Source: an uncultured SAR86 cluster bacterium (GTDB taxonomy: Bacteria > Pseudomonadota > Gammaproteobacteria > Magnimaribacterales > D2472). Taken from it: 64,000 nucleotides of DNA. The position numbers and the translations under genes are program-made. The notes under the pieces are model-generated. The model had not been told where the DNA came from. It was given only the letters and a program-made list of their open reading frames with translations, and ran no database searches. Location of the stretch: assembly GCA_902560315.1 (NCBI GenBank), contig CACELG010000004.1:8038-72037 (forward strand). Reading direction: 5' to 3'. Positions 1 to 32,726 of this stretch are shown piece by piece. Positions within the stretch are counted from its first letter, which is position 1. Each line of letters begins with the position of its first letter.

Positions 1-1259
1 ATTACTAAAATTCCAGGTGTAAATAATCCGGTGAAATTTTGAATATATTGAAATATTTGGTCTGAGTTTCCAAGAATTGGTTTTGCCATTACTAAAGCAA
101 TCAACATTGATCCTACAACTGAACTTCTACCAATTTTAATTAATGAAGATTGGGATATTTCATTTTTAGAAAATGATCTACATATATCCATTGTAAAAAT
201 TGTGCTTATACTATTTGTCATCGATGCTAATGAAGAAACAATTGCTGCAATTAAAGCAGCAAAAGTTAAACCTAATAAACCACTTGGTAATAATTCAATC
301 ATCATAGTTGGGTATGCTTGGTCTGTTTTTTCAAGGACTGGGAAAAGAACAGCTGCACAAATACCTGGAAGAACAATCACCAATGGCATTAGCAGCTTTA
401 AATAAGCTGCAAACATAACGCCTTTTTGAGCTTCTTTGATAGATTTTGCCCCAAGTGCTCTTTGTGTAATGTATTGATTAAATCCCCAATATGCGAAATG
501 ACCTATCCAAACTCCAGCTCCAATTAAAATCCATATTCCAGGAAGATTGTTATAAGAGGGATTATCTGGTGATAAAATCATGTCAAACTTTTCAGGCATC
601 TGTTGATAAACTTCAAGCATTCCATCTCCAATATATCCATTACCAATTTTTGTTAAAGCAATGTATGAAACTGCTAAGCCGCCAAAAATAAGAAGAACTA
701 CTTGAACAATATCTGTCATTGCGACAGCTTTAAGACCGCCCGATAAAGAGTATGCTAATGATAAAGCTGCAAGCAAAATCATTCCGTTTACTAGGGATAA
801 TCCGGTAAGCGTATTAATTGCTATTGATCCCAACCAAAGCACGGCTGTTAAATTAACAAATATATAAACGGTTAGCCAAAAGAAAGATAAAACTAAGCTT
901 ACTCTTTTATCAAATCTTTGCTCTAGAAATTGTGGCATTGTATAAATCTTTTTTTCTAAAAATAAAGGTAAAAAATATTTAGCCATAACAATTAAAGCTA
1001 TCGCAGCAGTTAACTCCCAAACTGCTATTGCCATACCAACAACAAATCCTTGACCTGACATCCCAATAATTTGTTCTGCAGAAATATTAGCAGCAATTAA
1101 TGATGCACCAATTGCCCACCATGGAAGAGATCTTCCTGCTAAAAAATAATCTTCTGCACTTCTTTCTGAACCTGATTTATTTCTCGATACATATGTTGCT
1201 AATGAAATTATCCCAACACAATACAATCCAACGATTATCCAATCTAAAGTATTAAACAT
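1..1259 (-). CDS. Sodium:solute symporter (SSS family, SGLT-like sugar/inositol transporter); 3' end runs off the left edge
   Basis: Not in the ORF track (truncated). Manual translation from ATG at 1259: MFNTLDWIIVGLYCVGIISLATYVSRNKSGSERSAEDYFLAGRSLPWWAIGASLIAANISAEQIIGMSGQG...YTMPQFLEQRF, the classic vSGLT-type N-terminus. AGGGA RBS upstream. Confidence 0.93.
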   Translation of the reverse strand, partial: MFNTLDWIIVGLYCVGIISLATYVSRNKSGSERSAEDYFLAGRSLPWWAIGASLIAANISAEQIIGMSGQGFVVGMAIAVWELTAAIALIVMAKYFLPLFLEKKIYTMPQFLEQRFDKRVSLVLSFFWLTVYIFVNLTAVLWLGSIAINTLTGLSLVNGMILLAALSLAYSLSGGLKAVAMTDIVQVVLLIFGGLAVSYIALTKIGNGYIGDGMLEVYQQMPEKFDMILSPDNPSYNNLPGIWILIGAGVWIGHFAYWGFNQYITQRALGAKSIKEAQKGVMFAAYLKLLMPLVIVLPGICAAVLFPVLEKTDQAYPTMMIELLPSGLLGLTFAALIAAIVSSLASMTNSISTIFTMDICRSFSKNEISQSSLIKIGRSSVVGSMLIALVMAKPILGNSDQIFQYIQNFTGLFTPGILV

Positions 1260-1351
1260 ATATCCCTATGTATTTGAATTTAAGGCATATTGTACCAATT
1301 TATAAATGTTTCTACGTAATAAAATAGTATGGTTTAAAAGAAATTTTAGGC

Positions 1352-1379
1352 AAAAAAAAACAGAGACTTGCTCTGTTTT
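1352..1379 (-). terminator. Intrinsic terminator of the putative sRNA
   Basis: Minus strand AAAACAGAG-CAAGT-CTCTG followed by a 9-T run. Confidence 0.8.
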
Positions 1380-1573
1380 CTTAGTTCGATTCCTCAGGGG
1401 TCTAAAGTGAGATTTTCTTTAGCGCCTTGGATTCTTTCTCTTGAATCCTTGGTGGATCTACAAGCTATTTTTTCTCATCGACTCTTGTAAATGCTTTCAC
1501 CCTTCGGTCTCTTCTTCTGGCTTCTCTCTAGGTCTCCTGTCTGCAGTTAGTCACTAGTCGGTTGCCATCCGTA
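1352..1573 (-). ncRNA. Putative ~220-nt structured, purine-rich small RNA (family unassigned)
   Basis: No ORF. Sigma70 promoter directly upstream. Stems UUUACAAG/CUUGUAGA, GGAUUC/GAAUCC and CUAAAG/CUUUAG with A/G-rich loops. Ends in an intrinsic terminator. The 5' end is estimated from the -10 box. Confidence 0.75.
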
Positions 1574-1579
1574 TTAGTA

Positions 1580-1607
1580 ATATTACTCCTACTAGAAATC
1601 TTGTCAA
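1580..1607 (-). promoter_or_regulatory. Sigma70 promoter of the putative sRNA
   Basis: Minus strand TTGACA-N16-TAATAT with A/T tracts upstream (UP-element-like). Confidence 0.75.
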
Positions 1608-1694
1608 CACTTTTTTGAAAAAAAGTTATAGTTTTTTTTAGGAAATAAAAAATTGGTATTTATTTTTATTTATATGTATAAAATGTATATAAAT

Positions 1695-2837
1695 ATGCAC
1701 ACTTTTTTACCAAGAAATCCTCCTATTAAGAACTACAGGACTAAGAGAGTTTCGTTATTAAAAATAAGTGATATTGCATCTCATCTTCCAAAATTGCTCT
1801 TAACAAATAAGGTTCAAACTACTATCAAAAAATTAAATAAAAATAGTTTATCTGTTGACTATCTTGTAAAAAATAAAAAAGAAAAAGAAATTAAACTTGC
1901 TATGTCTCATTTAAGCTTTATTGCCCATGCGTATATTTGGGGAGGTAATAAACCTGAAAAATTACTTCCTGAAGTTATTGCTAAACCATGGGTAACTTTA
2001 TCTAAGTATCTTGGTAGACCTCCTATTCTAAGTTACGCAAGTTATTGTCTTGATAACTGGTATAAGATTGATAATAAAGAGCCTATATCTCTAGATAATG
2101 TGGCATTAATAAATAACTTTCTTGGAGGTGTTGATGAAGACTGGTTTGTAACAATCCATGTTTGCATTGAAGACGCTGCTAGTGAAGCGATTGATTCAGC
2201 AACCAAGTTATCAAAATTAAGTAAGCAACATAAAATAGAAGATTTTTCAATTTACCTTAAAAAAATATCTAAATCATTAAAAAAAGTTAATCGCATTTTT
2301 TCGAGAATGCCTGAAAAATGTGATCCATATGTTTACTATCACAGGGTAAGACCCTATATATTCGGGACAAAAGATAATCCAGACTTAAAGAAGGGTTTGA
2401 TTTATGAGGGTCAATTTAATAATAAACCACAGTTTTTTAGAGGAGAAACTGGAGCACAGAGCAGCATAATACCATTACTCGATGGAGCTCTTGGAATTTA
2501 TCATACTAATGATAGTTTGAGACATTATTTAAATGAAATGAGAGATTATATGCCTCCCAAACATCGAAAGTTGATTGAAGATGTTGAAAAAAGATCTAAA
2601 GCAAAAGAATTTATTAGTAAATCTAAAAAATTAATGAATGAATATAATCTTTGTTTAGAAGAAATAAGAAAATTTAGAGCTCAACATCTTGAATATGCAG
2701 CATCTTATATTCATAAACAAGCACAAATAAAAAATACTTTTGGTACAGGCGGTTCTACTATAAGAGGGACAGGCGGAACTCCATTTATGAAATATTTAAA
2801 GAAACATAGAGACGAAACTCAAAAACAAAAAGTTTAG
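1695..2837 (+). CDS. Indoleamine 2,3-dioxygenase (IDO) family heme dioxygenase
   Basis: Motifs ILSYASYCLDNW, DEDWFVTIHVCIE, GETGAQSS, FRAQH (proximal His), GTGGTPFMKYL. Start moved from TTG 1653 to ATG 1695 (MHTFLP matches the IDO N-terminal FLP motif). Confidence 0.9.
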   Translation: MHTFLPRNPPIKNYRTKRVSLLKISDIASHLPKLLLTNKVQTTIKKLNKNSLSVDYLVKNKKEKEIKLAMSHLSFIAHAYIWGGNKPEKLLPEVIAKPWVTLSKYLGRPPILSYASYCLDNWYKIDNKEPISLDNVALINNFLGGVDEDWFVTIHVCIEDAASEAIDSATKLSKLSKQHKIEDFSIYLKKISKSLKKVNRIFSRMPEKCDPYVYYHRVRPYIFGTKDNPDLKKGLIYEGQFNNKPQFFRGETGAQSSIIPLLDGALGIYHTNDSLRHYLNEMRDYMPPKHRKLIEDVEKRSKAKEFISKSKKLMNEYNLCLEEIRKFRAQHLEYAASYIHKQAQIKNTFGTGGSTIRGTGGTPFMKYLKKHRDETQKQKV

Positions 2838-3121
2838 ACTCCTTCTACTACAGTAAAAATTCTATTAGCTGAATCCTCGACATGTTTGAGAGCTGATTGA
2901 TATTCTTCTGAGTTATAACAATCTATTGCGTGTTGATATGAATCAAATTCAACAATAACAGTTCTTTTATATCCCTTTATCTCATATTCTGTTTGCTTAC
3001 CGCCTCTTGCAAGGAAAGTTCCAGAATTCTTTTTAACTATTTCTGAAGCTTTTTCGACGTATTTATAATATTCATCCTGATTATGAATATTTGCTCTTAC
3101 AACCCAGTAACCTTTTGGCAT
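2834..3121 (-). CDS. DUF1330 family protein
   Basis: KGYWV...Y..Y...A...V....G.FLARGG...E......RTVIVEFDS...A..CYNSEEYQ pattern. Confidence 0.85.
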   Translation of the reverse strand: MPKGYWVVRANIHNQDEYYKYVEKASEIVKKNSGTFLARGGKQTEYEIKGYKRTVIVEFDSYQHAIDCYNSEEYQSALKHVEDSANRIFTVVEGV

Positions 3122-3122
3122 A

Positions 3123-5315
3123 TTATTTTCTTCTAAGTCTCATCTCATGAAGAATTGGTTCAGTGTATCCACTGGGTTGATATTTTCCTTTAATAGCAAG
3201 TTCGCATGCAGCTTTAAAAGCTATTCCGTCATATGAAGGAGCCATTTTTTTATAATTAACATCATTTTTGTTTTGCTGATCAACCTTTTTTGCCATTTTT
3301 TTCATAGTCTCAACAACTTCAACTTCTGAACATAATCCGTGATGAAGCCAATTTGAAATATGTTGACTAGATATTCTACATGTAGCTCTGTCCTCCATTA
3401 GGCCAACATCATTAATGTCAGGAACCTTTGAACAGCCTATTCCTTGATCTACCCACCTAACAACGTATCCCAATATACCTTGTGCATTGTTTTCTAATTC
3501 AGCAGTTATTTCCTCTTGTGATGGCATCTTATCTTTTTTCAAAAAAGGTATATTAAGAAGATCATCCAACTTAGCTTTATCTCTATTGATGATTTTATCT
3601 TGTTGATCTTGAACAGATATCTGATGGTAATGCATTGCATGAATTGTTGCTGCTGTTGGAGAAGGTACCCATGCACAATTAGCTCCTGCTTCAGGATGCA
3701 TTGTTTTAGTTTTATACATATCTAACATTTCATCTGGCATTGGCCACATTCCTTTGCCTATTTGAGCATTTCCTTTAAATCCAGTTTCTAGGCCTATATC
3801 AACATTCCAATTCTCATATGCATTTATCCATTTTTGATTTTTCATATCTGCCTTTGTAACCATTGGGCCTGCTTCCATACTAGTGTGAATTTCGTCCCCT
3901 GTTCTATCAAGAAAGCCAGTGTTAATGAAAATTACTCTGTGTTTAGCAACCTCTATACATTCTTTGAGATTTACAGTTGTTCGTCTCTCTTCATCCATAA
4001 TACCCAATTTGACTGTATTTTCAGGTAGATTAAATATCTTTTCTATTTCAGAAAAAAGATCACAAGTAAATTGAACTTCATCTGGGCCATGCATTTTAGG
4101 TTTTACAATATATATGCTCTTTGTTTTAGAATTTTTGTATATGCCATTACCAATAATGTCATGTATTGATATGCATATTGTAAAAAATGCATCCATTATC
4201 CCTTCTGGAACTTCATTTCCTTTTTCATCTTTAACAGCCGGGTTAGTCATTAAATGGCCAACATTTCTAACTAACATTAGACTTCTTCCTGGAAGAAGTA
4301 TCATCTTTCCATTCTTCAGTAAATATTTTCTATCGGGATTTAATTCTCTAGTTATAAATTTGCCGCCCTTATCAAATGATCTCTTTAAATTGCTTTTCAT
4401 CAGACCTAACCAATTTCTATAAACAATAATCTTATCTTCTGCATCTACTGCAGCTACTGAATCTTCACAATCTTGTATTGTTGTTATTGCAGACTCCATT
4501 AAGATATCTTTTATGCCTGCTAAATCCTCTTGACCAATAGGACTTGATCTATCAATTTGTATTTCAAAATGTAGATTATTGTTTTTAAATAATAAGCCAT
4601 ATGCTCCTTCTCCCTTGTCCTTATAGCCTACATACTGATCTTTATTTTTCAAATTCACACTTGAGCCATCTTTTAAAGTTATGAGTAATTCACTGTCTAT
4701 AAATTCAAATTTAATAGCATCGTTATATGTGCCTTCTTCCATCGGAATTATTTCATCTAGAAATTTTTTAGCGAAAGCAATAACCTTTTCACCTCTTACT
4801 GGGTTATAGCCCCCCTCCCTTTTTGCTCCATCTTCCTCATCAATAATATTTGTACCATACAAAGCATCATATAAACTGCCCCATCGTGCATTTGCAGCAT
4901 TTAATGCAAATCTTGCATTCATTACAGGTACAACCAGCTGAGGACCTGCAATTTTTCTAATTTCTGGATCTACATTAAATGTTTTAATAGTAAAATCACC
5001 GCTTCTTTGATGAAGATATCCAATGTCATTTAAAAACTTCTTGTACTCTCCTAAATTAAATTCTAAATTCCTATTTTTAATATGCCATTCACTTATCTGA
5101 TCTTGTAATTCCTTTCTTTTATCAAGTAACTCTTTATTTCTATCTGAAAATTTATTTAATAAATTTTCGAATGAGCTCCAAAAATAATGAGGTGATATAT
5201 CCAAGCCTGGTAAGATTTCGTCCTTAACAAAGTCTTGTAAACTTGAAGAAATTTTTAAACTAATATCATTTGGTGAATGTTTATTGGAATTAAATAATTT
5301 TGAAAGAAATTTCAT
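3123..5315 (-). CDS. glcB: Malate synthase G
   Basis: IAGPQLVVPVMNARFALNAANARWGSLYDALYGT, IYIVKPKMHGP, MDEERRT, NTGFLDRTGDE, LMEDRATCRISSQH; 730 aa. Confidence 0.97.
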   Translation of the reverse strand: MKFLSKLFNSNKHSPNDISLKISSSLQDFVKDEILPGLDISPHYFWSSFENLLNKFSDRNKELLDKRKELQDQISEWHIKNRNLEFNLGEYKKFLNDIGYLHQRSGDFTIKTFNVDPEIRKIAGPQLVVPVMNARFALNAANARWGSLYDALYGTNIIDEEDGAKREGGYNPVRGEKVIAFAKKFLDEIIPMEEGTYNDAIKFEFIDSELLITLKDGSSVNLKNKDQYVGYKDKGEGAYGLLFKNNNLHFEIQIDRSSPIGQEDLAGIKDILMESAITTIQDCEDSVAAVDAEDKIIVYRNWLGLMKSNLKRSFDKGGKFITRELNPDRKYLLKNGKMILLPGRSLMLVRNVGHLMTNPAVKDEKGNEVPEGIMDAFFTICISIHDIIGNGIYKNSKTKSIYIVKPKMHGPDEVQFTCDLFSEIEKIFNLPENTVKLGIMDEERRTTVNLKECIEVAKHRVIFINTGFLDRTGDEIHTSMEAGPMVTKADMKNQKWINAYENWNVDIGLETGFKGNAQIGKGMWPMPDEMLDMYKTKTMHPEAGANCAWVPSPTAATIHAMHYHQISVQDQQDKIINRDKAKLDDLLNIPFLKKDKMPSQEEITAELENNAQGILGYVVRWVDQGIGCSKVPDINDVGLMEDRATCRISSQHISNWLHHGLCSEVEVVETMKKMAKKVDQQNKNDVNYKKMAPSYDGIAFKAACELAIKGKYQPSGYTEPILHEMRLRRK

Positions 5316-7390: not shown

Positions 7391-8338
7391 TTAATTTATT
7401 AAGCCGTAAAGATCGTATTGTGATACAAAATTCCATATTTCATTAGAAGCACTTACGTTATATTCTGCTGTGGAGGGCCAAGTATGTCCCATCGTTGGAT
7501 GAAGAATTAGTTTTACATTTACGTTGTTTAAACAATTTATATAAGTATCGTAAAGAATTAAATCAAAATCATTTGAGTATTTAATTAGTCTGTCTGGATC
7601 TGAGCCGCAAGAATTATAATTTACCCAATAATCTATAACATCAGGAATGCTTTTAGAGCCTGCATTACCATCATATGGAACAACGTAATCAAGCAGACCA
7701 TGAATCTGTAATACTGGTGTAGGATGAGAAGGAGAGCAATCATCATAAGTTCCAAAGGTCATGGAACCTGTTACAGATGCAATTGCAGCAAATTTCTCTC
7801 CAAGATTACAAGCTAAGTGATAGCTCATATATCCACCATTAGACATTCCAGATGAATATATTCTAGTTTCATCAATCATAATTTTATTTTTGGTAAAATT
7901 AATTAATGTATCAATAAATTCTATATCTTTGACTGTACTTTTTGATGTCCAACCACCAACATTCCAATGTGAAGATAATGTGTCTGTTGTTGCCCCTTGA
8001 GGATAAATAATCACTAAATTATTAGAATCAGCAATTGGTATATAGTTTGTATAACTGAAGTGTCTATATGCAGAAGAACCATAACCATGAAGAGCAAATA
8101 ATACTGGAATACTAGAATTGTTATCTAAATTTTCAGGTATATAGATATAGTAGTGTCTATCGAGGTTATCATGTTTTAAGTCACACTTTTGAAGATTTTC
8201 AATTGAAGTATTTTCACAACTTTCATTATTAGTATTTGTATCTGGTGGGCTTACAGATTGATTATCAGAATTTGAGGATCCACCTCCACCGCATGAAGAT
8301 ATGAGAAATAACAATAAAAATTTTGTTGTAGACTTCAT
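7391..8338 (-). CDS. Lipoprotein esterase, PHB depolymerase/LpqC-like alpha/beta hydrolase
   Basis: Lipobox LISSC-GGGG, LHGYG oxyanion motif, YPQG, GMSNGG nucleophile elbow, IHGLLDYVVPY, GHTWP. Confidence 0.85.
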   Translation of the reverse strand: MKSTTKFLLLFLISSCGGGGSSNSDNQSVSPPDTNTNNESCENTSIENLQKCDLKHDNLDRHYYIYIPENLDNNSSIPVLFALHGYGSSAYRHFSYTNYIPIADSNNLVIIYPQGATTDTLSSHWNVGGWTSKSTVKDIEFIDTLINFTKNKIMIDETRIYSSGMSNGGYMSYHLACNLGEKFAAIASVTGSMTFGTYDDCSPSHPTPVLQIHGLLDYVVPYDGNAGSKSIPDVIDYWVNYNSCGSDPDRLIKYSNDFDLILYDTYINCLNNVNVKLILHPTMGHTWPSTAEYNVSASNEIWNFVSQYDLYGLIN

Positions 8339-23133: not shown

Positions 23134-23529
23134 ATGAATACAGCTAAAGATCTTATCCAAAAATGGCATGAAGTGTTAAAAAATGACGATCAGGGTTTAT
23201 TGAAAAATCTTATTGCAGATGATGCTTTATTTTCATCACCGGTAGTTTTTACACCCATGGAGGGAAAAGAGATAACCATGATGTATTTATCCGCTGCTGG
23301 TCAATCATTCAATATGGAGAAGTTTCAATATACGAAAGAGATTCATGATGGCATGAATTCTGTTCTTGAATTTGAAACCTATATCGATGACATATCAGTC
23401 AACGGAGTTGATATTATCGAGTGGAATGAAGAAGGAAAGATTGTAAACTTTAAAGTTATGATCAGGCCGTTTAAAGCAGTACAAAAAGTACAACAAAAAA
23501 TGGTAGAAGCGTTAGAAAGTTTGGGTTAG
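23134..23529 (+). CDS. SnoaL-like/NTF2 family protein
   Basis: LLKNLIADDA.FSSPVVFTPMEGK...VLEFE......VNGVDII.WN..GKI..FKVMIRP; start moved to ATG 23134. Confidence 0.82.
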   Translation: MNTAKDLIQKWHEVLKNDDQGLLKNLIADDALFSSPVVFTPMEGKEITMMYLSAAGQSFNMEKFQYTKEIHDGMNSVLEFETYIDDISVNGVDIIEWNEEGKIVNFKVMIRPFKAVQKVQQKMVEALESLG

Positions 23530-23771
23530 CTCTTATCCCTAGGTCTTGATTCATTTACAACTAAACTTCTTCCATCAACCTCAGTTTCGTTTAATGCTTC
23601 AATAGCAGCTTCGCCACCATCACTCATTTCAACAAAACCAAAACCTCTAGAACGTCCAGTTGCTCGGTCTGTGATAATTTTTGCAGAAGTCACAGTACCG
23701 TGTTCAGCAAAAACATTTTCTAAATCTTGGTCTGTTAATCCCCAAGATATGTTACCTACGTATATATTCAT
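23526..23771 (-). CDS. Single RRM (RNA recognition motif) RNA-binding protein
   Basis: RNP2 IYVGNI, RNP1 RGFGFVEM, AIEALN, GRSLVVNESRPR. Confidence 0.93.
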   Translation of the reverse strand: MNIYVGNISWGLTDQDLENVFAEHGTVTSAKIITDRATGRSRGFGFVEMSDGGEAAIEALNETEVDGRSLVVNESRPRDKS

Positions 23772-32641: not shown

Positions 32642-32726
32642 GCCCCATTGGCGGAATTGGTAGACGCGCGCGATTCAAAATCGCGTTCCTTCGGGAGTAT
32701 CTGTTCGACTCAGATATGGGGCACCA
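32642..32726 (+). tRNA. tRNA-Leu(CAA), 85 nt, long variable arm, encoded CCA
   Basis: Acceptor GCCCCAT/ATGGGGC, anticodon arm CGCGA-TTCAAAA-TCGCG, T arm ATCTG-TTCGACT-CAGAT. Confidence 0.96.

Follow-up and report, generated by a model that had tools for sequence, protein, structure and literature searches.

The question raised by this locus is what kind of RNA is made from the stretch of about 220 nucleotides (nt) between the gene for an SSF sodium:solute symporter and a divergent gene for an indoleamine 2,3-dioxygenase-like protein (IDO) in the chromosome of an uncultured SAR86 cluster bacterium, and what that RNA might do. The window, i.e. the whole stretch of DNA that was analysed, has a length of 64,000 nt and comprises positions 8,038 to 72,037 of contig CACELG010000004.1 (assembly GCA_902560315.1). 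Positions given below are those of the window, and the RNA is encoded on its minus strand. A first-pass annotation, made without database searches, had described the feature as an unannotated, purine-rich RNA with several hairpins and with a promoter and a terminator of its own, possibly a sponge for a regulatory protein of carbon metabolism, and had pointed to IMES, CrcZ, CsrB/Rsm and 6S RNAs for comparison. Judged from the sequence, it is virtually certain that the feature is an IMES-1 RNA gene (Rfam RF02034) and that the chromosome carrying it belongs to a marine gammaproteobacterium of the SAR86 clade. The explanation that we favour overall, in which this gene forms its own transcription unit and its product acts in trans, with binding of protein as the leading idea for its mode of action, is held with good confidence as a whole, and its parts are graded separately below.

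The IMES-1 model was matched by cmscan at 189.8 bits (gathering score 81, E 7e-43) and over its full length, model positions 1-191 of 191. It was the sole match to Rfam 15 other than tRNAs across the whole window. A second cmscan of the region 1100-1900, with permissive filters and E<=1, gave no CsrB/Rsm, CrcZ, 6S or other IMES model; a match to AgrB (22.9 bits against a gathering score of 40), in which only the terminator was aligned, was discarded as a chance match. The hints at IMES motifs and at SAR86 in the first-pass annotation were thus both correct, the former by cmscan and the latter by the hosts of the homologues, and the comparison with Rfam that it had proposed singled out IMES-1 from the families it had named. 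The copy in the window has the same helices, conserved blocks and marine origin as the Rfam family and differs from most copies in having AAGGCG instead of AAGGAG; otherwise the RNA itself is the same.

The feature is therefore real, and it is not new. The reference for RF02034 is Weinberg, Perreault, Meyer & Breaker (2009, Nature 462:656). Dupont et al. (2012, ISME J, PMC3358033) reported an 'abundant' non-coding RNA from metatranscriptomes, derived from Shi, Tyson & DeLong (2009), in the glycolysis/glucose-uptake region of SAR86, and inferred RNA-based control over carbon assimilation. That RNA has the clade and the neighbourhood in common with IMES-1, and is matched to it by location, not by sequence; extra genomic copies, tandem paralogues and loop palindromes are not reported in the accessible text of that paper. 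With the Rfam match and the SAR86 sugar-locus report of 2012, the word 'unannotated', in the sense of new, could not be upheld: the literature already covers the RNA itself, the bacteria that carry it and its main genomic context, but not its function. A literature search on IMES-1 by name gave no relevant open paper. Weinberg and colleagues are said to have described the IMES RNAs as being among the most abundant RNAs of their hosts.

Relatives were collected by a pattern search in one genome per GTDB species, which returned at least 119 loci, about 100 of them chance matches, and the genome copies were confirmed by nhmmer with the window sequence and by cmscan. We found at least 19 further IMES-1 copies, scoring 180-202 bits in cmscan, in at least 15 SAR86-type genomes. 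The 15 genomes listed are 11 of the SAR86 cluster, three metagenome-assembled genomes (MAGs) of unclassified marine Gammaproteobacteria (TMED226, NP51 and SAT1358) and one single-cell genome labelled Pseudohongiella; apart from the latter, the true homologues among the matches listed come from SAR86 single-cell amplified genomes (SAGs) and MAGs or from unclassified marine Gammaproteobacteria. The contig labelled 'uncultured Pseudohongiella sp.' (L010, CACAEJ010000016.1) carries a typical IMES-1 (192 bits) beside a GMP-reductase-like gene, as in MAG NP51; if this label can be trusted, IMES-1 also occurs outside SAR86. A stricter pattern gave 62 further loci in marine metagenomes (Tara, GOS and JGI), and a scan of IMG/VR gave seven pattern matches, none of them a real IMES-1. 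The resulting set holds 90 copies from SAR86 single-cell genomes, MAGs and marine metagenomes among the matches listed, of which 64 are distinct and full length; these form the alignment A1, with a mean column identity of 84%. The window itself (G+C 32%) is 95.2% identical over 8 kb to the SAR86 SAG AG-343-G10.

According to the Rfam alignment, the RNA consists of a two-part hairpin at the 5' end (P1) and a four-way junction (P2-P5). Counting the Rfam structure plus the terminator, 90.7% of cells were paired in A1, against 24-50% when the partners were slid, and 20 of the 42 pairs showed compensatory change, a number that was reached in 0 of 500 shuffles. The changes occur in all four pairs of the outer stem of P1, in four of the five of its inner stem, in six of the nine of P3 and in two each of P4, P5 and P2. 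Conservation and covariation of the stems in relatives, on which the first-pass annotation had let its case depend, are thus both strong. The three hairpins that it had drawn (UUUACAAG/CUUGUAGA, GGAUUC/GAAUCC and CUAAAG/CUUUAG) coincide with the Rfam helices P3, P4 and P5; the 5' hairpin P1, the closing helix P2 and the status as a curated family had escaped it.

Conservation extends to the unpaired parts. P1 has a conserved 6x6 internal loop (AACCGA/AGAGAA) below a terminal loop of 20 nt, and the joining strands of the junction (GUGAAAGC, CCACCAA and AAGG(A/C)G) are invariant or nearly so. The window copy contains all of the blocks AACUGCAGAC, GGGUGAAAGC, CCACCAAGG, AAUCUCA and GACCCC of IMES-1, and these vary little or not at all across A1; three conserved blocks, and none of the helices, doubled as search patterns, so that the invariance of the blocks is partly by construction. 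In P2 (1501-1506 with 1393-1398) the two outer-inner G-C pairs are invariant. The two positions in the middle, which these pairs flank, mostly lack Watson-Crick pairing in the family (the window has G.A/A.G there), and the junction may thus have tandem sheared pairs at its base.

Two contacts within the molecule were considered and dropped. For kissing of GAGA in the P4 loop with UCUC in the P5 loop, both elements are invariant and a flanking change that would add a pair occurs in only 4 of the 64 copies, which is too weak to claim. A pseudoknot between UCGA in the P3 loop and UCGA in the 3' tail was rejected since the tail stays CUCGA in clades in which the loop reads GUAUAC or GUUAAC; the tail does not co-vary with the loop, and this intramolecular partner is therefore not supported.

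The promoter is as conserved across the family as the RNA. In the promoter scan, the TTGACA-N16-TAATAT arrangement has 10 of 12 matches. TTGACA is identical in all 72 copies with upstream sequence and is followed by a spacer of 16 nt, and the -10 hexamer reads TAATAT in 51 of these, TATTAT in 10, TAGTAT in seven and TATATT in four. The 39 nt further upstream have a mean A+T content of 88% over the 72 copies, versus 68% for the window, and their A and T runs are conserved in an alignment of 20 copies. The predicted start is the invariant A in column A10 of A1, mapping to 1572. At the other end, the terminator stem is invariant in all 64 copies and paired in the minimum free energy (MFE) fold; it shows no covariation because it is invariant, and is not listed by the consensus scan because it has fewer than 3 G-C pairs. 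Both signals named in the first-pass annotation, the promoter with upstream A tracts and the terminator (1376-1352), were thus present on the minus strand.

The promoter looks like a near-consensus sigma-70 promoter that is strong and probably constitutive. The A/T-rich tract, the consensus -35 and the near-consensus -10 would drive transcription from about position 1572, and the invariant hairpin with its U-tract would stop it near 1352. The product, about 220 nt long, would fold into P1 and the P2-P5 junction with near-invariant, purine-rich and U-poor loops and joining strands. There is no open reading frame (ORF) of at least 20 amino acids (aa) on the minus strand of this stretch, in agreement with the ORF-free RNA described earlier. 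A small peptide as the product was ruled out on this ground and because the variation follows the helices.

We also found that IMES-1 is a multicopy gene. AG-343-G10 carries two near-identical copies 9.5 kb apart on the same contig (L081, 132-323, and L114, 6659-6850); the counterpart of the second would lie just beyond the start of the window. AG-892-E05 has two copies about 5 kb apart (L019 and L060). Tandem pairs, in which each copy has its own promoter and terminator, occur in two genome loci and nine metagenome loci (e.g. L061, 1619-2113; L103, 2213-2729; L121, L132, L146, L156, L159, L168 and L179). The first members of these pairs cluster apart from the second members, at a distance of 8-12%, and both clusters turn up again on different contigs, which argues for old paralogues that were both kept and not for recent duplicates. 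Many metagenome contigs stop inside IMES-1 (L124, L125, L127, L152, L153, L154, L157, L158, L162, L165, L170 and L175), which suggests that the repeated gene breaks SAR86 short-read assemblies.

In relatives the usual order is IDO, divergent from IMES-1, followed by genes for pyruvate kinase (pyk), the SSF symporter, a GH3 beta-glucosidase and glucokinase. The IDO-like gene is the divergent upstream neighbour in 30 of the 90 copies. Pyruvate kinase is missing in the window and in its closest relative, and IMES-1 for that reason stands directly before the symporter here, as opposed to most IMES-1 loci; the placement given by the first-pass annotation, between the symporter and IDO genes and head-to-tail upstream of the former, agrees with the Pfam matches of the neighbours. 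Downstream of the 90 copies we observed pyruvate kinase in 26, another IMES-1 in 11, a GMP-reductase-like gene in eight, the SSF symporter in five, an FAD monooxygenase in four, something else in 22 and a contig end in 14. In three genome copies (L081, L101 and L059) IMES-1 is convergent with the next gene. The varied neighbours, the tandem paralogues and the convergent genes, together with the copies that occur away from sugar genes, speak against a leader and in favour of an RNA that is independent and acts in trans. We regard it as very probable that IMES-1 is such an RNA and not a leader of the adjoining sugar genes. The proposal of an independent structured RNA gene, made in the first-pass annotation, is supported by the near-consensus sigma-70 promoter, the intrinsic terminator and the absence of ORFs.

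Some further features of the surroundings were noted. TGgTACAAT at 1289-1297 (minus strand), downstream of the IMES-1 terminator and ahead of the start codon of the symporter (1259), resembles an extended -10 motif and suggests that the symporter has a promoter of its own; as it lacks a -35, it is not among the sites of the consensus scan. Many SAR86 genomes share the genes for IDO, a DUF1330 protein and malate synthase G (1674-5315) as a conserved block upstream of IMES-1. Elsewhere the window carries the usual genes of a chromosome (secDF, tgt, queA, adk, uppP and others), and a tRNA-Leu (CAA) was found by ARAGORN at 32642-32726 (plus strand), where the Rfam scan of the window at gathering thresholds lists only Gly and Glu tRNAs. 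One SAR86 SAG contig with IMES-1 (L059) also carries three tandem glutamine riboswitch aptamers (RF01739, 66-69 bits each; 3102-3277, plus strand), which precede a 202-aa ORF and, as read from the translation, an apparent ammonium-transporter-like gene. The coordinates of the features in the window are collected in Table 1.

Table 1. Features of the IMES-1 locus and related genes in the window (positions of the 64,000-nt window)
Feature	Position	Strand	Basis or remark
SSF sodium:solute symporter, downstream of IMES-1; runs off the window start	3..1259	-	Pfam PF00474, E 5.6e-59
Putative intrinsic terminator, stem ACAGAG(C)/(G)CUCUGU followed by U8-9	1352..1376	-	
IMES-1 RNA core (Rfam RF02034, model positions 1-191)	1376..1567	-	cmscan, 189.8 bits
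Four-way junction; P2 (1506-1501 with 1398-1393) encloses P3, P4 and P5	1393..1506	-	Rfam structure
P5 hairpin CUAAAG/CUUUAG, loop AAAAUCUCA with invariant UCUC	1402..1422	-	
P4 hairpin GGAUU/AAUCC, loop CAAGAGAAAG with invariant GAGA	1429..1448	-	
P3 hairpin AUUUACAAG/CUUGUAGAU, 19-nt conserved loop AGAGUCGAUGAGAAAAAAUAG	1456..1492	-	97% of cells paired
Self-complementary hexamer GUCGAU, P3 loop	1477..1482	-	self-complementary (G.U counted) in 90/90 copies
Purine-rich linker GAAGAAGAGAC between P1 and P2, with invariant AGAG; holds (ARN)3 runs	1507..1517	-	
P1, outer stem UGGC/GCCA (1567-1564 with 1521-1518), inner stem CUAG(U)/(C)CUAG (1557-1553 with 1532-1528)	1518..1567	-	
Palindrome CUGCAG, P1 terminal loop; putative role in RNA-RNA pairing	1541..1546	-	identical in 64/64 distinct copies
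Predicted transcription start, invariant A 8 nt downstream of the -10	1572..1572	-	promoter geometry
-10 hexamer TAATAT, 16-nt spacer	1580..1585	-	promoter scan
-35 hexamer TTGACA	1602..1607	-	promoter scan
A/T-rich tract upstream of the -35 with phased A and T runs; putative UP-like element	1608..1650	-	
Indoleamine 2,3-dioxygenase-like gene, upstream, divergent	1674..2837	+	Pfam PF01231, E 1.4e-91
RRM_1 protein, 81 aa, single domain, RNP2 IYVGNI, RNP1 RGFGFVEM	23526..23771	-	PF00076, 67 bits

How IMES-1 would act is much less clear than what it is. Somewhat short of an even chance, and as the leading idea, we consider it an abundant scaffold that would bind or titrate a protein by displaying single-stranded purine blocks (CCAAGGA, which occurs twice in the family, 22 nt apart, and GAGA and ARN runs) to an RNA-binding protein. 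The composition of the RNA is in line with this. Counted on the 222-nt stretch 1573-1352, the purine content is 62.6%, within the top 3% among 222-nt windows on either strand, and GAGA occurs six times, against a mean of 1.85 in mononucleotide shuffles (20 of 2000 shuffles reach six). Over the family the unpaired positions are 71.6% purine (A 46%, U 11%) and the paired positions 52%. The protein-binding reading further draws on the invariant, purine-rich loops and junction strands, on GGA being conserved at three positions and on (ARN)3-4 runs at three places; in the window copy (ARN)3 runs are likewise found at three places. The motif counts of the first-pass annotation were accurate for GAGA, for the (ARN)3 runs and for the four copies of GGA, the last of which do not stand out above shuffles.

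A candidate partner may be the 81-aa RRM protein listed in Table 1, a candidate global RNA-binding protein of SAR86 by its sequence. Two metagenome contigs (L152, 5065-5307, and L157, 3-116) encode homologues of it at a distance of 6-8 kb from IMES-1, and its gene is the only one for an RNA-binding protein noted near the copies, apart from one CspA-like match in L035. In Bacteroides, sugar use is under the control of a multicopy family of sRNAs to which the single-RRM protein RbpB binds (PMC11697453). Multiple copies, a small RRM-1 protein in the genome and sugar use as the likely theme are common to IMES-1 and the FopS/GibS-RbpB system (PMC11697453); the FopS RNAs differ in being short sRNAs made of a seed and a terminator, as compared to the 190-nt junction fold of IMES-1, and for the SAR86 RRM protein the parallel may serve as a lead, not as evidence.

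Several observations weigh against protein titration. GGA is not enriched in the window copy (four, shuffle mean 4.8). Of the three GGA that are conserved, those at A1 columns 141 (stem P4) and 197 (stem P2) belong to stem strands; that at column 163 is in the single-stranded J4/5 and is lost in the window copy. The linkage of the RRM gene is loose, at 22 kb in the window and near IMES-1 in only 2 of the 79 other loci. A tertiary fold, a ribozyme or an assembly of RNA alone would account equally well for the invariant loops, and the low U content of the single strands could just serve to avoid cleavage of the RNase E type. Finally, the ends of the RNA are predicted here, its abundance is taken from the literature, and the abundant RNA of Dupont et al. 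is equated with IMES-1 through the shared location only.

The alternative that survives best, and one that is compatible with protein binding, is that IMES-1 associates with itself through palindromic loops into homodimers or larger assemblies that are essential to its function; we consider this a minority possibility of some substance. The hexamer in the P3 loop is self-complementary in each of the 90 copies and remains so through five variants (GUCGAU in 64, GUCGAC in 13, GUAUAC in 11, GUUAAC in one and GUCGGC in one). In A1 its central pair is CG in 56, AU in seven and UA in one, its outer pair is G.U in 46 and G-C in 18, and all cells are self-paired, against 0.5-89% when slid. No partner within the molecule is supported for this hexamer, and a palindrome without spacer does not allow pairing within one molecule. 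The second element, CUGCAG in the terminal loop of P1, would form a self-duplex of -9.9 to -13.1 kcal/mol; it is invariant, so that covariation gives no test of its pairing. Conserved self-complementary hexamers occur only at these two loop positions and once inside stem P5.

Several points temper this proposal: about four independent change events underlie the P3 pattern, the shuffle statistics are inflated by related sequences, self-complementary hexamers are not enriched overall (8.5 per sequence, 7.6 in shuffles), and the 6-bp GUCGAU contact, with two G.U pairs and -5.9 kcal/mol, may be too weak in vivo. The specific proposal, that IMES-1 RNAs would pair mutually through the P3 hexamer (GUCGAY, GUAUAC, GUUAAC) together with CUGCAG of P1 to give a homodimer or higher assembly, is slightly less probable still and thus unlikely, although the two loop palindromes taken together suggest a new lead. 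Precedents exist in the homo-oligomers of ROOL, GOLLD and OLE (PMC12286853) and in the palindromic pairing of HYER1 (PMC12990946). What IMES-1 may have in common with the former three is intermolecular contact via self-complementary loops; it is much smaller, at about 220 nt, and its oligomerisation is a lead taken from sequence. GOLLD was reportedly described in the same 2009 paper by Weinberg and colleagues as IMES-1.

Next comes the possibility, which we rate as unlikely, that the IMES-1 copies are sibling base-pairing sRNAs that use the conserved single-stranded blocks as seeds for mRNAs, perhaps of carbon metabolism. Diverged multicopy paralogues are kept in tandem across genomes, as is the case for Qrr, PrrF and FopS, the most closely related lineages of paralogues are told apart by their 5' end and P1, and a strong terminator and long invariant single strands are present. 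Conservation, however, spans nearly every loop and junction of the 190-nt four-way-junction fold rather than one seed, and the purine-rich unpaired parts resemble ribosome-binding sites rather than complementing them; UCUC and CCACC are the only pyrimidine blocks.

Less probable again is a sponge of the CsrB/Rsm type (for CsrA) or of the CrcZ type (for Hfq/Crc) that would set carbon-source priorities in SAR86, close to what had first been proposed. IMES-1 does lie beside pyk, the SSF symporter, the GH3 beta-glucosidase and glucokinase in most genomes, and, as with CsrB/C and RsmX/Y/Z, the gene is present in several copies. Members of the family carry 4-9 GGA (median six) and the two CCAAGGA elements, at a spacing of 22 nt that a CsrA dimer could bridge, and the (ARN)3-4 runs fit the distal face of Hfq. 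RNA-based control of carbon assimilation, as inferred by Dupont et al. (PMC3358033), would also fit. Where tested, the resemblance fails: besides the lack of any CsrB/Rsm, CrcZ or 6S model match at E<=1 and the chance-level GGA of the window copy, AAnAAnAA is absent from that copy and from 60 of the 64 copies, a GacA/UvrY box (TGTAAGN6CTTACA) was not found in the 228 nt upstream (the best match has four mismatches out of 12), there is no sigma-54 motif TGGCA-N7-TGC before a promoter that is of the sigma-70 consensus and looks constitutive, and copies also occur away from sugar genes. In addition, tblastn of the window and about 1 Mb of loci gave no Hfq, CsrA, ProQ or Crc, which counts for little as this is a small part of a genome; csrA and hfq were not mentioned in the SAR86 papers and supplements searched.

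The comparison with these RNAs can be put in terms of structure. CsrB/CsrC and RsmX/Y/Z resemble IMES-1 in being abundant and multicopy, in having several GGA and, by position, in the link to carbon metabolism; they are strings of GGA hairpins, whereas IMES-1 is a four-way junction without model match or GacA box, with GGA at chance in this copy and mostly in stems where conserved. IMES-1 resembles CrcZ/CrcY of Pseudomonas in that its single strands are rich in purines and in A and that it has genes of carbon metabolism as neighbours, and it differs in lacking AAnAAnAA and a model match and in having a sigma-70 instead of a sigma-54/CbrB promoter. 6S RNA is a rod-like helix with a central bubble, in contrast to the hairpin plus four-way junction of IMES-1, which does not match RF00013. 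The CsrB/Rsm-, CrcZ- and 6S-type candidates of the first-pass annotation therefore found no support; the sponge idea in general is neither supported nor excluded.

A cis-acting leader, i.e. a riboswitch or attenuator whose terminator would gate read-through into downstream sugar genes, is very improbable and already largely refuted by context: at least 31 of the 90 copies immediately precede pyk or the symporter in the same orientation, with the terminator in between, and the complex, highly conserved junction of IMES-1 could be an aptamer, but what lies downstream differs from copy to copy (a convergent gene in three, another IMES-1 in 11), the terminator stem is strong and invariant with a U8-9 tract, no anti-terminator pairing stood out in the MFE fold or the alignment, with no dedicated search made, the symporter appears to have its own extended -10, and Rfam classes the family as 'Gene' and not as 'Cis-reg'.

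As a discovery nothing here is new, since the RNA has been in Rfam since its description in 2009 and its SAR86 sugar-locus context in print since 2012. What is added is that IMES-1 is a multicopy gene with diverged tandem paralogues that are kept and that also occurs away from sugar genes, that its promoter looks constitutive and very strong, that membership of the CsrB, CrcZ and 6S types fails where tested, and that two of its loops carry palindromes, one of them kept by covariation. The RNA is reportedly among the most abundant transcripts of SAR86. SAR86 makes up a sizeable share of the bacteria of the surface ocean. With an isolate now at hand, Magnimaribacter mokuoloeensis HIMB1674, for which a closed genome is available (PMC11582366), the question of what IMES-1 does has become testable. 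If self-association were true, a very abundant transcript of an abundant ocean bacterium would work as an RNA assembly, a small relative in behaviour of ROOL, GOLLD and OLE.

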